Source: a virus. Taken from it: a DNA stretch of 64,000 nucleotides. The notes beneath the pieces are model-generated. The model searched no databases, was not told the DNA's origin, and worked only from the letters and a program-made list of their open reading frames with translations. Every line of letters begins with the position of its first letter. Within the stretch, counting starts at the first letter, position 1. Below are positions 29,869 through 54,561 of the stretch, in pieces. The position numbers were made by a program, and so were the translations under genes. The stretch is taken from IMG/VR virus record IMGVR_UViG_3300035698_017437, positions 32,001 to 96,000 of that record. One strand, written 5' to 3'.

Positions 29869-31236
29869 ATGTTTGAAGTTCCAAATAAAGAAAGAGGAAT
29901 CATTGAATGTCTTGAATCTAACGGATATGAGACATATTTGGTGGGAGGAGCTGTAAGGGATTATTTCCTAGGACAGACTCCTCATGATTTTGATATTTCC
30001 ACCAATGCTCGTCCTGAGCAGATTATTGAAATTTTCAAAAAAGAATCCTTTATCACAAATATTGATCTTGTTGGAGAATCTTTTGGAGTTGTTCTTATTG
30101 ATGGAATTGAAGTAGCGACATTCAGAGGGGATCATTATTCAGGTACGGGTTCTCAAAAAGATGTTGAAATCACTTATTGTGATACAATTGAGGAAGACCT
30201 TTCCAGAAGAGATTTCACTGTCAACTCAATGGCTATTGATCTGTCTGGTGATTTGATTGATCCTTTCGGAGGCCAAAGAGATTGTGAAGATATGATTCTT
30301 CGTTTTGTTGGTTCTGCTGATAAGAGAATCAAAGAAGATTCAAACCGAATTCTTCGGGCCTTTCGGTTTTCAGCTAAAGGTTTTAAACTTCAGCTTGATC
30401 TAAAGATCGCAATTGTAAGGAATCTTTCTTCTGTAAAGAATATTGCTCCTGAAAGAATTCGTCTTGAACTCTTAAAAACGATGGAATATGAGAAACCTTC
30501 CATCTTCTTTGAAAATGCTTATAAACTTGGAGTTCTTGAGTATATATTTCCTGAATTATGTCTTTCATGGGAACATGATGGAGGAAATCATCATCCTGAA
30601 TCTGTTTGGGAACATGTTATGATTGCTGGAGATTCGGCTTCTCCTAAGTTTCCATTACAACGCCTTGCCGCTTATCTTCATGACATTGCCAAACCTGAAT
30701 GTTTCAAAAGAAATGATGATAGGACCTTTTCCCGTCACGATGTTGTGGGATATAAGATTCTCCAGAAAAATCTTAAATCACTGAAATTCTCTAATGAAGA
30801 AATTGAAAAAGTTTCTGGTTTGTCTAGAATTCATATGAGACATGGGTTTTATGGTGATGATAAAGGAAGTCATAAAGCTTTTCGTAAAACTCTGAGGGCT
30901 CTTTCTGAATTCGGTGTTTCTTGGAGAGAATTTATCCGATTGAGAATTGCTGATACTAAAGGAAACCTTGGAGTTGAAGATCTTACTTTTACTCAATTGA
31001 GAACCATTATCACTCCTTTTGTAAATGGATTATATGCTGATACTCCATTTACTGCTCATGCTCTGGCATTATCTGGTGGAGATATCAAGGATCTTTTTCA
31101 TTTGGAAGGCAAAGAAATTGGAGAGCTTCAGAAACATTTACTCCATTTGGTTGTTGAGGATGGAGTGGAGAATGCTAGGAACGTTTTGATGGAAGTATCT
31201 TTGGATTTCATCAAGGAATCTAAAGTTCGAGAATAA
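29869..31236 (+). CDS. cca: CCA tRNA nucleotidyltransferase with HD domain
   Basis: LVGGAVRD, DFD, DLSRRDFTVN, ED..RILRAFRF, ERI..EL, LHDIAKP. Confidence 0.93.
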   Translation: MFEVPNKERGIIECLESNGYETYLVGGAVRDYFLGQTPHDFDISTNARPEQIIEIFKKESFITNIDLVGESFGVVLIDGIEVATFRGDHYSGTGSQKDVEITYCDTIEEDLSRRDFTVNSMAIDLSGDLIDPFGGQRDCEDMILRFVGSADKRIKEDSNRILRAFRFSAKGFKLQLDLKIAIVRNLSSVKNIAPERIRLELLKTMEYEKPSIFFENAYKLGVLEYIFPELCLSWEHDGGNHHPESVWEHVMIAGDSASPKFPLQRLAAYLHDIAKPECFKRNDDRTFSRHDVVGYKILQKNLKSLKFSNEEIEKVSGLSRIHMRHGFYGDDKGSHKAFRKTLRALSEFGVSWREFIRLRIADTKGNLGVEDLTFTQLRTIITPFVNGLYADTPFTAHALALSGGDIKDLFHLEGKEIGELQKHLLHLVVEDGVENARNVLMEVSLDFIKESKVRE

Positions 31237-48162: not shown

Positions 48163-49254
48163 ATGAGAAAGTTAGCAACAATCAGAAGAATTGAAAATAT
48201 CCTGCCTATTCAAGGAGCTGATAGGATTGAAGTAGCTTATATTGATGGTTGGGAATGTGTTATCAAAAAAGATCAATTCATAGTAGGTGATTTCTGTGTT
48301 TATTTTGAAATTGATTCTATGCTTGATAAAGATAATCCCGTTTTTGAATTTATGGCTCAACGAAAGTTTAGAGTAAGAACTATCAAACTGAGAAAACAGA
48401 TTTCTCAGGGACTTGCTCTTGCTCTTGAGGATTTCCCTGAATTGAAAAATCCTATAGTTGGTGATGATGTAACCTCTCTACTGAAGATCACTAAACATGA
48501 TCCTCATGCACAAAGAGAGCGAAATCAACAGGTTAGCACTAGGAAGAAGCCTCCATTGCGCTGGATGCTCCGATTTGGTGTAGGACGATATCTACATCAA
48601 AAGATTTGGAACAGAGCTTCAGGATCATGGCCCGGACTTTTTCCCAAAACCGATGAAGAAAGAATTCAAAATCTTTCTCTATATAATCTTGAAAGTATTC
48701 TCAAAGATGAAGTGGTTGTTACAGAGAAATTGGACGGACAATCAGTATCAATTTTCTATGATAGAAAAGCAAAAACGGGATTCTTCAAACGAGGAGTTTT
48801 TGGAGTATGCTCTAGGAATATTTGGTATAAAAACCAAGCAAATAATAATTGGTGGAATATAGCAATCAAAGAAAACCTCCAATTGACTCTTCCTGAATAT
48901 TGTAATCAAGAAAAGATGTCGCTTGTCATTCAAGGAGAAATAGTAGGAGAGGGAATTCAAAAGAATAGATATAATCTGAAAGGACAACATCTATATGTTT
49001 TTTCTGTATATGATATTGAAAATCAGAAATATATTGATCCAAAAGATGAGACTTTATCTTTGGGTTTGACAAGAGTTCCAGATCTAGGAACTTGCGTCTT
49101 AGAACCAAATAAAAAACTTATCCTTGAATTCGCTGAAGGTAAATCTGTAGTTGGATCTAAATCTCTTAGAGAAGGAATTGTTATTCGTTCTGAGAAAGAT
49201 CAATCCAAATCATTCAAAGCTATTTCTAATAAATGGCTTCTCAAAAATGAATAA
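48163..49254 (+). CDS. RNA ligase (Rnl2/DRB0094-like)
   Basis: RKLATIRRI..ADRIE, QISQGL, KTDEERIQN, EKLDGQS, QGEIVGEGIQKN, REGIV, FKAIS. Confidence 0.9.
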   Translation: MRKLATIRRIENILPIQGADRIEVAYIDGWECVIKKDQFIVGDFCVYFEIDSMLDKDNPVFEFMAQRKFRVRTIKLRKQISQGLALALEDFPELKNPIVGDDVTSLLKITKHDPHAQRERNQQVSTRKKPPLRWMLRFGVGRYLHQKIWNRASGSWPGLFPKTDEERIQNLSLYNLESILKDEVVVTEKLDGQSVSIFYDRKAKTGFFKRGVFGVCSRNIWYKNQANNNWWNIAIKENLQLTLPEYCNQEKMSLVIQGEIVGEGIQKNRYNLKGQHLYVFSVYDIENQKYIDPKDETLSLGLTRVPDLGTCVLEPNKKLILEFAEGKSVVGSKSLREGIVIRSEKDQSKSFKAISNKWLLKNE

Positions 49255-49541
49255 TGTGTATACAAAATAAGAAACATATAATTCAAAAGGAGAGAGATAT
49301 GAAATTTGTTATCGGAATGAACGGAGCACCAAAAGCACCAAAAACCAAAGAAGAAGAAAAGTCTATTGAAGAAAGTATGGGATTCTTCATTAAATTTATC
49401 GCTTGGAGTATTGTCGGTATTGCTCTTATTGGAGCATTTCTTGTTTGTGTAGCTGATGTACAAAGTGAAAGCAATGTAACAAAAACAGAAATAAGTGTTG
49501 ACAAATGATTCTAAATATGTTATAATTACATATACCAAATG

Positions 49542-49608
49542 AATAAGACTATAACAGTGAGTTAACCTTGTAAATGCCACCGTGCTCTAGGCACTGTTAT
49601 ATCTTGTT
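49542..49608 (+). ncRNA. Candidate small structured RNA
   Basis: TATAACAGTG (49550-59) / CACTGTTATA (49592-601); own promoter at 49498; no ORF. Confidence 0.4.
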
Positions 49609-49684
49609 TATATATACAAAATAAAATGAATTTAGTTGTTGACAAGTGATTCTAAATATGTTATAATTACATATATATCAAATT

Positions 49685-49792
49685 TTGTTGTGTTGTAAAA
49701 ACAAACCTCACACAGTATAAGCGGTGATAAGGTAGAGAATCGCCAAAGACATTATAGTCTTTGCTTGGAGAGAGCGATTTCCCACACAACAA
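49685..49792 (+). ncRNA. Candidate small structured RNA
   Basis: TTGTTGTGT/ACACAACAA closing stem, inner AATCGC/GCGATT and CAAAGAC/GTCTTTG; promoter at 49639. Confidence 0.45.
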
Positions 49793-49799
49793 TAAACAT

Positions 49800-49882
49800 G
49801 GAGAGTTATACCGTAGGGGTAGCGGGATAGACTGTAAATCTATTGTCCTTTGGCTCGGGTGGTTCGACTCCACCACTCTCCA
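49800..49882 (+). tRNA. tRNA-Tyr(GUA), no encoded CCA
   Basis: GGAGAGT/ACTCTCC, ATAGA-CTGTAAA-TCTAT, long variable arm. Confidence 0.9.
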
Positions 49883-49939
49883 CTTAAAATTAATTTAGTT
49901 GTTGACGAGAAATAGAAAATATGTTATGTTTCTTTATAA

Positions 49940-50107
49940 TAATATGCTTTCTGTGGTCGGGTAGTCCCGTATGAACGTGTAGGATTTATCAATAGAGTAA
50001 GATGATCATCCTCTATAATTTGATAGGCAGCCTTGCTTCAGAGGCAGATCTTGAATTCGCTAAGAAACGGTTCAATGATGATCTGCCCGCACACCGAAAG
50101 CATATTA
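49940..50107 (+). ncRNA. 6S-like rod-shaped RNA (candidate)
   Basis: 12-bp closing stem, CGGGTAG/CTGCCCG, central bubble with TTGAA..TTCAA hairpin, terminal TATCAA/TTGATA and ATAGAG/CTCTAT; promoter at 49902. Confidence 0.5.
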
Positions 50108-50111
50108 GTAT

Positions 50112-50186: not shown

Positions 50187-50197
50187 GATTGTAGATT

Positions 50198-50260
50198 AGA
50201 GATTTAGCTTATGTAAAGCGGGTATTTTGACAGATCTTGGTTCAACCCCAAGAATCTCCT
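50198..50260 (+). pseudogene. Degenerate tRNA lacking a proper anticodon arm
   Basis: GAGATT/AATCTC, D-arm GCTT/AAGC, T-arm CTTGG-TTCAACC-CCAAG. Confidence 0.45.
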
Positions 50261-50276
50261 TTCTACATACAATTAT

Positions 50277-50351
50277 TGCGGAGTAGAGTATTGGTAACTC
50301 TCTTGTCTCATAAGCAAGGATATGTTGGTTCAATTCCAACCTCCGCAACCA
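50277..50351 (+). tRNA. tRNA-Met(CAU)
   Basis: TGCGGAG/CTCCGCA, CTTGT-CTCATAA-GCAAG, CCA. Confidence 0.9.
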
Positions 50352-50361
50352 ATTTTTATAT

Positions 50362-50591
50362 CTCTCTATAGCTCAATAGGTAGAGCTTCTGAGGAATATT
50401 GAGTGTGAATTTTTGGGTTGCTCCTCAAATTCCTTCAATAATAATCAGAGCAAGTATTTCAATAATCCTACACTGGTCGGCAGATCATAACCTTGACCTC
50501 TTTTCTCTGGATAGCCATGGAACAAAGAGAAAAATTGTCATTGAAGTAGATTAGAGAAATCGTGAAGGTTCAAATCCTTCTAGAGAGACCA
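50362..50591 (+). ncRNA. 230-nt tRNA-like RNA with large internal insertion(s)
   Basis: Acceptor CTCTCTA/TAGAGAG-A-CCA, D-arm GCTC/GAGC, T-arm GAAGG-TTCAAAT-CCTTC; ~155 extra nt between D and T arms. Confidence 0.75.
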
Positions 50592-50606: not shown

Positions 50607-50694
50607 TCCCGCCTGACAGAGTGGTAATGTGCCTGGCTGTTAACCAGAGACCTAGAGTAATCTAGCGGTTGTTCGACCCAACCGGCGGGAGCCA
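50607..50694 (+). tRNA. tRNA-Asn(GUU) with long variable arm
   Basis: TCCCGCC/GGCGGGA, loop CTGTTAA, variable hairpin CTAGA-GTAA-TCTAG, CCA. Confidence 0.85.
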
Positions 50695-51019
50695 ATTGTC
50701 CCACTAACTTTTAGAGAGAATAGAATGACAAAACATTGGTGCGATGCTTGTGAAAGAGAGATAGTAGATAATAACTATAAGAATGTTGGAATACCTTGTC
50801 ATTTATATTCTATGAGTAGATCAGGAAATCTCCAGGGAGGGTATGTTGATAGGGAATTTCAACCAATATCAGGAAGAGATGATAATGTCCTTTTATGTCA
50901 TAAGTGTTTGAACAAAGGATGGTCGGCATTCTTGACTAAATTGGACTTAAATGGAGAGAAAAGGACAGAAACAGTTGAAACAGAGAGACTAAACGCCTTT
51001 ATTTATTAAGAGTATATGT

Positions 51020-51095
51020 GCGCTTGTAGTCCAACGGCAGAGACAACAGGTTTAAGCCCTGTCCAGTGAAGGTTCAAATCCTTCCAGGCGTACCA
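51020..51095 (+). tRNA. tRNA-Leu(UAA), short variable loop
   Basis: GCGCTTG/CAGGCGT, ACAGG-TTTAAGC-CCTGT, CCA. Confidence 0.88.
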
Positions 51096-54484: not shown

Positions 54485-54561
54485 GGCGCAATAGCCCAAT
54501 TGGCAGAGGCAATGGTTTTAGAAATCATGTGTTGTAGGTTCAACTCCTACTTGCGCTACCA
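54485..54561 (+). tRNA. tRNA-Leu(UAG), short variable loop
   Basis: GGCGCAA/TTGCGCT, ATGGT-TTTAGAA-ATCAT, CCA. Confidence 0.88.

Follow-up and report, generated by a model that had tools for sequence, protein, structure and literature searches.

The RNAs closest to the element described here are small stable RNAs encoded in the tRNA clusters of bacteriophages T5 and T4, which form a kind of RNA and not a homologous family. The record of T5 (NC_005859) holds four stable RNAs in the tRNA cluster (RNA1, RNAI, RNAIII and RNA2H), and RNA1 (30501-30644, 144 nt) is annotated there as 'tRNA-like stable RNA with unknown functions'. Its T arm is GAAGG-UUCAACU-CCUUC, its D arm is of the Leu type and its variable arm is of class II. 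In T4, RNA C and RNA D (species 1 and 2 RNAs; NC_000866, 70908-71171) are small stable RNAs of 139 and 119 nt at the end of the tRNA cluster, and RNA C combines the canonical T arm CCGGG-UUCGAAU-CCCGG with paired ends and two internal hairpins. Both T4 RNAs are reported, in reviews and an omics study, to be transcribed and to have unknown roles (PMC3014915, PMC9697503). The 230-nt element analysed here shares with the T4 and T5 kind a tRNA-like acceptor and T arm and the lack of a decoding anticodon loop. An artificial counterpart also exists, as Ponchon and Dardel reportedly engineered tRNA scaffolds for recombinant RNA in which the cargo replaces the anticodon arm; the acceptor, D and T arms of such scaffolds supply processing and nuclease resistance.

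The 230-nt element (50362-50591) was found in a window of 64,000 nt, the whole stretch of DNA that was analysed, which corresponds to bases 32001-96000 of a 141,960-bp IMG/VR viral contig. It belongs to a tRNA operon within the phage tRNA cluster, shares the strand of the tRNA genes and shows tRNA-like spacing, with AT-rich spacers of 10 nt towards tRNA-Met (50277-50351) and 15 nt towards tRNA-Asn, as elsewhere in the operon. A perfect tRNA frame encloses ~176 nt (Table 1). Like T5 RNA1, the element combines a position inside a phage tRNA cluster with a tRNA-type acceptor, D arm and T arm and with a larger folded domain that replaces the anticodon arm. However, it measures 230 nt as against 144 nt, its frame is Asn-like with two expansions whereas that of RNA1 is a Leu-like class II frame with one, and RNA1 has no BLAST similarity to its insert. 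T4 RNA C and D resemble it as small stable RNAs of the tRNA cluster of a T4-type phage, but they lack a canonical D arm and an encoded CCA and share no sequence similarity with the 230-nt element, whose tRNA frame is far more complete. In contrast to the artificial scaffolds, the element occurs in nature and has a second cargo, placed at the variable position.

Table 1 Features of the 230-nt element, of its surroundings and of related loci (window coordinates, except for L-numbered loci on other phage contigs)
Feature	Position	Strand	Description
Acceptor stem, 5' strand CTCTCTA	50362..50368	+	7/7 Watson-Crick pairs with 50581-87; pair probability 0.88-1.0
D arm GCTC-AATAGGTA-GAGC	50371..50386	+	A14, G18, G19, A21; 4-bp stem, probability 0.99
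Extended 'anticodon' arm	50388..50449	+	Stem TCTGA/TCAGA closing 52 nt; 62-nt hairpin
Giant 'variable' domain	50450..50563	+	114 nt; predicted branched fold
T arm GAAGG-TTCAAAT-CCTTC	50564..50580	+	5-bp stem, probability 1.0
Acceptor stem, 3' strand TAGAGAG, A73 and encoded CCA	50581..50591	+	TAGAGAG 50581-87; A73 50588; CCA 50589-91
tRNA-Asn(GUU), intact	50607..50694	+	88 nt; ARAGORN; Rfam tRNA 34.5 bits only
Three near-identical sigma-70-type promoters	49498..49940	+	TTGACA-17-TATAAT at 49498 and 49639, weaker copy at ~49902; pattern matches
RNA ligase, Rnl5-type	48163-49254		Among tRNA genes; N-terminal OB domain (PHA02142) and PF09414
CCA-adding enzyme with HD domain	29869-31236		20 kb upstream
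tRNA-framed RNAs of 112-126 nt	L076:10274-10389; L076:10535-10651; L100:1951-2080; L109:819-939; L109:939-1063; L158:1689-1814; L158:2119-2236	L100 member -
tRNAs with 22-40-nt inserts	L065 6270-6378; L065 5892-5994; L112 1470-1585; L169 11458-11557	L065 members -	Plus-strand coordinates

The source phage is, as its replication genes mark it (gp43-type DNA polymerase, UvsX, primase, helicase and DNA ligase), a deep-branching T4-like phage, and its DNA polymerase is 39% identical to cyanomyovirus polymerases. The host is bacterial, because the phage tRNA-Tyr is of class II (84 nt) and perfect sigma-70-type promoters (TTGACA-17-TATAAT) stand before the tRNA run. Public runs with this sequence are almost exclusively salt-lake metagenomes, none of those listed is an RNA run, and the contigs examined are DNA only. 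ARAGORN found 13 canonical tRNAs in the cluster, at 46.2-54.8 kb.

All universal tertiary nucleotides outside the anticodon arm are kept in the element (U8, A14, G18, G19, A21, G53, T54, T55, C56, A58 and C61), and position 3-70 is C-G. We searched the whole 142-kb genome with our own frame scanner, which looks for T arms, for a complementary 7-mer at a distance of 95-450 nt upstream and for a D arm containing GG, and the 230-nt element was the only oversized frame (95-450 nt) obtained, thus excluding a chance frame. Contigs from two runs, which belong to different studies, extend across the element without a single difference, although one of the runs is possibly the source sample; the element is thus not an assembly chimera, a concern voiced in the preliminary description of the locus. 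The intact outer arms and CCA reported there were confirmed, and so were all the strings that it quoted, including TCTGA (50388-92), TCAGA (50445-49) and TTAGA (50551-55).

No canonical anticodon hairpin (5-bp stem, 7-nt loop, Y32-U33...R37) is present in place, and the extended anticodon arm has neither a 7-nt anticodon loop nor U33. Two partners had been proposed for TCTGA. In the partition function the pairing with TCAGA reached p=0.98, and the alternative with TTAGA, which would make one large anticodon-loop insert, received p=0. In both the MFE and the centroid structure, the 52 nt closed by the former pairing form an irregular hairpin of ~22 bp (helix probabilities 0.94-0.98), whose apical loop of 14 nt is UUGGGUUGCUCCUC. 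The variable domain is closed in the partition function by a 13-bp interrupted helix (50456-71/50546-60, p 0.88-0.95) with the strands ATTTC-AA-TAATC-C-TAC and GTA-GATTA-GA-GAAAT, inside which the sub-hairpins TGGTC-GGCA-GATCA (50474-87) and 50494-50540, the latter with the palindrome CCATGG in its loop, are predicted. This inner fold should be read as a prediction and not as a finding. The complementary strings named earlier for this region, TATTTCAAT/ATTGAAGTA and TTTTCTCT/AGAGAAAA, are indeed present, but the helix TATTTCAAT/ATTGAAGTA has a probability of only 0.02.

Compared with shuffled sequences, the first hairpin gave z=-2.5 and the full 230-nt RNA z=-2.1. The variable domain folds at shuffle level (z=-0.8), and for the whole insert z was -1.06, with 34 of 200 shuffles folding equally well. 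By energy only the first hairpin stands out, and folding energy lends the description of the insert as structured no more than weak support.

Neither ARAGORN in default mode nor Rfam at its gathering thresholds called the element, and its only tRNA match in Rfam was a truncated one of 14.1 bits, against a threshold of 29 bits (RF00005). A permissive Rfam scan of 701 nt at E<=10 gave no match to group I introns, self-cleaving ribozymes or tmRNA, while the same Rfam library detected the group I intron (RF00028) with 70.9 bits on the phage locus L042:2820-3138, used as the positive control. Both a tmRNA and a group I intron had been dismissed in the preliminary description, and our data agree: a tmRNA is rejected by C3-G70, the full D arm, the absence of a tmRNA call by ARAGORN or Rfam and the lack of a tag-like frame, and a group I intron in a tRNA gene is rejected by the missing RF00028 match and by the fact that excision restores no anticodon loop. 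YrlA, a bacterial Y RNA (RF02553), was scored at 20 bits against a gathering score of 69 bits, the match covering only the T arm of the neighbouring tRNA and the D arm of the element, and was rejected; RNAs of that class have their ends in a Ro-binding stem and not in an acceptor. A mobile element or repeat was also rejected, since the insert occurs only once in the genome and lacks terminal repeats. No significant similarity of the insert to the rest of the tRNA cluster was detected, and a 12-nt repeat, GTAGATTAGAGA, at 50191 and 50546 is near chance expectation.

The 5' half of the element (acceptor, D arm, position 26 and TCTGA) has its best full-length matches in the tRNA-Asn of T4-like cyanophages. 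It is identical at 26 of 31 positions to the tRNA-Asn of cyanophage S-RIM50 (E ~0.01 for the 31-nt match), the query being short and the D arm common to many isotypes, which limits how far Asn ancestry can be read from it. The anticodon arm of the S-RIM50 tRNA is TCTGA-CTGTTAA-TCAGA; the element keeps TCTGA and TCAGA, and 52 nt replace CTGTTAA. The discriminator is G73 in S-RIM50 tRNA-Asn versus A73 in the element. Because its 5' half is nearest to cyanophage tRNA-Asn and the TCAGA partner is found at 50445-49, the element is, with moderate support, an apparent ex-tRNA-Asn in which 52 nt have come to occupy the place of a 7-nt anticodon loop and 114 nt that of a 5-nt variable loop. Together with the 2 nt before it, the T arm is identical at 19 of 19 positions to that of the phage's own tRNA-Leu(UAA) (51066-84), which suggests exchange between members of the cluster.

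Upstream of the tRNA run Tyr-Glu-Met-giant-Asn-Leu-Ser, in which 'giant' denotes the 230-nt element, pattern matches gave three putative promoters, which would be the likely source of its transcript. They belong to a 54-nt repeated cassette with three copies within 49481-50111 (at 49498, 49639 and ~49902), each followed by a structured stretch without an ORF or tRNA, and the third such stretch (49936-50111) has closing arms of 29 nt with 83% complementarity. The RNA ligase gene is found 1.1 kb upstream of the element. Taken together, the RNA ligase and the CCA-adding enzyme make up a tRNA repair and maintenance kit of the phage.

Other members of the cluster are also atypical. The tRNA-Asn(GUU) is the decoding Asn tRNA beside the ex-tRNA-Asn; it has G73, a GC content of 57% versus ~45% in its neighbours, and a class-II-like variable arm, CTAGA-GTAA-TCTAG with a GNRA loop, which is unusually long for Asn. 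Both tRNA-Leu genes, 51020-51095 (UAA) and 54485-54561 (UAG), are class I genes of 76-77 nt with G1-U72 and A73, without the long variable arm that is normal in bacterial tRNA-Leu. Between tRNA-Glu and tRNA-Met, a mini tRNA-like element of 62 nt (50198-50260) without CCA was observed, which neither ARAGORN nor Rfam called. Its acceptor is AGAGATT/AATCTCC (A1xC72), extendable by the flanking GTAGA/TCTAC, its D arm GCTT-ATGTA-AAGC lacks GG, its T arm CTTGG-TTCAACC-CCAAG is canonical, and 16 nt replace the anticodon arm and variable loop (22-23 nt). Directly 3' of tRNA-Asn, ORF94 (50725-51009) encodes a small protein with two CxxC pairs, one of a family of zinc-finger proteins that are 70-95 aa long and number 63 cluster representatives at E<=0.001; the Atlas clusters that resemble it most are viral, and it received no Pfam or PHROG assignment. 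ORF94 has, besides the CxxC pairs, the string 'NVLLCHKC'. A homing-endonuclease cassette was nevertheless rejected, as ORF94 has no HNH match in Pfam, PHROGs or the Atlas and no GIY-YIG match.

With slightly better than even confidence, we read the 230-nt element as a non-decoding stable RNA in a tRNA frame, with the two expanded arms as its cargo. It would have descended from a tRNA-Asn-like gene in which both loops expanded into folded arms and the frame and CCA stayed intact. It would be co-transcribed with the flanking tRNAs, and the intact acceptor/T-arm minihelix and elbow would lead RNase P to cut the 5' end at 50362; the 3' end would be set by 3' trimming or CCA repair, and a tRNA-like stability may be expected. 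The RNA cannot read codons, and its work would fall to the two expanded arms. The earlier proposal of a tRNA scaffold carrying a domain survives to the extent that it agrees with the anatomy and that T5 RNA1 and T4 RNA C are precedents for it. As the most likely use, we prefer protein binding or a decoy function in the conflict over tRNAs, because the phage has an RNA ligase in its tRNA cluster, several atypical tRNAs and a CCA-adding enzyme of its own.

Oversized tRNA frames are common in phage tRNA clusters. Among ~117 phage loci chosen by a D-arm...T-loop pattern, our scanner identified ~25 further genuine oversized frames of 99-155 nt. They include a family of tRNA-framed RNAs of 112-126 nt on four unrelated IMG/VR phage contigs, in which a covarying 7-bp hairpin, with an invariant (C/T)GCAA motif after it, replaces the anticodon arm; for two of these RNAs the Rfam call is tRNA with a large insertion. 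The covariation in the insert hairpin indicates that at least some such RNAs are under selection. Class II tRNAs and phage tRNAs with a very long variable arm (for example L088:155-292 and L088:1926-2062) resemble the 230-nt element in carrying an extra domain that arises from the variable position, between the anticodon and T arms, but they have a normal anticodon stem-loop and Rfam tRNA scores of 47-48 bits versus 14 bits. The two at L088 are 134-nt tRNAs with ~65-nt variable arms of similar sequence, and one has the loop ATTTAGA with the anticodon TTA, which would read the ochre stop codon.

Further kinds of tRNA-associated RNA were observed in the same material. In four tRNAs (Table 1, last row), the insert is placed just after position 37 or 38 and the 5' side of the anticodon loop is normal (CTGTTA, CTTTTA or TTGTAA); this position matches that of protein-spliced introns in archaea and eukaryotes. 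GOLLD RNAs were found in the phage tRNA clusters L084:455-917(-) and L087:5418-5825, one of them overlapping a tRNA. The group I intron at L042 is carried by a 230-kb phage contig.

The competing explanation that fares best, although we regard it as unlikely, is that the element is a dead tRNA gene: an ancestral tRNA-Asn whose anticodon and variable regions were disrupted by insertion or replaced, and whose job was taken by the foreign-looking downstream tRNA-Asn(GUU), with a frame that is perfect only through recency and an RNA that, if made, is inert. An intact tRNA-Asn(GUU) of different make, distinguished by its GC content and long variable arm, does stand 15 nt downstream, the folding energy of the insert is at chance level, and conservation was seen neither in phage records nor in fetched loci or pattern searches. 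BLAST against 50,697 phage records, a collection that includes T4 and T5, gave no homologue of the insert; nhmmer and BLAST found no match to it in 174 fetched phage loci, and exact and degenerate DNA patterns returned nothing from IMG/VR and JGI metagenome contigs. By the proteins around the locus, the nearest relatives show 38-55% identity, on contigs without synteny. The RNA ligase search yielded 46 IMG/VR loci with a best protein match of 55%, their contigs being DNA-polymerase-A phages without synteny, and the DNA polymerase search yielded no IMG/VR relative. Best identities of the neighbouring proteins were 48% for a 162-aa protein, 38% for a 218-aa protein and 52% for ORF94 (contigs <1 kb). 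On present evidence, the 230-nt element is so far a single, unconserved instance. The missing insert homologue and the shuffle-level folding of the insert also count against a non-decoding stable RNA, and the intact frame could reflect a recent event.

However, the two expansions, the loss of the anticodon loop and the change from G73 to A73 point to a longer history than a recent disruption. An unselected frame should show at least one mismatch in 16 stem pairs and ~13 universal positions, and it shows none. Neither an endonuclease nor any other ORF is present in or beside the insert, ORF94 being a small zinc-finger protein without HNH or GIY-YIG, and the spare tRNA stands outside the frame, not inside it. 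Moreover, phage genomes rarely retain 230 nt of junk in a tightly spaced operon.

Very improbable, in our judgement, is an interrupted functional tRNA, from which one or two intervening sequences would be removed by an endonuclease and the Rnl5-type ligase, or by an unrecognised ribozyme, to give a ~76-nt tRNA. Splicing by the phage RNA ligase had been suggested in the preliminary description, and the nearby ligase gene, together with other phage loci that have short inserts after position 37 and one true group I intron, is in its favour. ARAGORN with introns allowed also reports a tRNA here, 'tRNA-Tyr(ata)', with an intron of 151 nt, but the loop that it leaves, GGATAGA, lacks U33. Every possible single deletion between the D and T arms was also tried, allowing variable loops of 3-23 nt, and none yielded a 5-bp stem with a Y32-U33...R37 loop; a normal tRNA with a simple insertion is thereby rejected, and the ligase-splicing proposal is left unsupported by this result, by the ARAGORN loop and by the lack of a bulge-helix-bulge. 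The latter motif is absent from the extended hairpin, which has 2x2 and 1x1 internal loops and single-base bulges instead of 3-nt bulges 4 bp apart. With a bacterial host, an archaeal or eukaryal protein-spliced intron was likewise rejected. Rnl5-type ligases, moreover, seal nicks in duplex RNA. Removal by a ribozyme is opposed by the lack of a group I or self-cleaving ribozyme match at E<=10 with a control that scored 70.9 bits. Comparison with tRNA genes that have a group I intron in the anticodon loop (bacterial tRNA-Leu(UAA) type) gave the same picture: at L042:2820-3138 the frame is also oversized and the insert is also in the anticodon region, but that insert matches RF00028 and its exon junction leaves a UAA-type loop, neither of which applies to the 230-nt element. 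To our knowledge, the smallest group I introns are ~200 nt long, and the insert is below that at 151-155 nt.

Least probable of all is that the insert holds a trans-acting antisense RNA or a small coding RNA, for which the tRNA frame would serve as a processing handle: a tRNA frame would release and stabilise any cargo, the principle behind engineered tRNA scaffolds, and a 51-codon TTG-started frame runs through the insert, but that TTG stands only 3 nt after GAGGA and the frame shows no tag or known-peptide features, a coding insert was rejected as its reading frames are not convincing, and the longest antisense matches to the phage genome (13-15 nt) are at the expectation for an AT-rich genome, those of 13-16 nt (TTCCTTCAATAAT and similar) falling inside coding sequence, not at ribosome-binding sites.

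Returning to the non-decoding stable RNA in a tRNA frame, the kind to which it is closest has been known from T4 and T5 for decades without a function, and no other RNA compared has as complete a tRNA frame or as large a cargo as the 230-nt element. Its value is that of one more member of a recurring, uncharacterised class. If it is expressed and stable, phages would use the tRNA frame as a natural scaffold. Phage tRNAs are now being linked to the evasion of host defences that cleave tRNAs (for example PMC10264068). A further step, which we offer tentatively and with the chances somewhat against it, is that the element is a functional, selected tRNA mimic and belongs to an undescribed class of tRNA-framed RNAs without an anticodon that would be widespread in large phages. 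In such a mimic the frame would attract tRNA-handling proteins of host or phage, or divert defence nucleases or toxins that target tRNAs, and the expanded arms would give specificity. The 230-nt element would be a clean construct for finding the proteins bound by such mimics, and the mimic reading, if true, would supply a testable function for the 50-year-old puzzle of the stable RNAs of T4 and T5.
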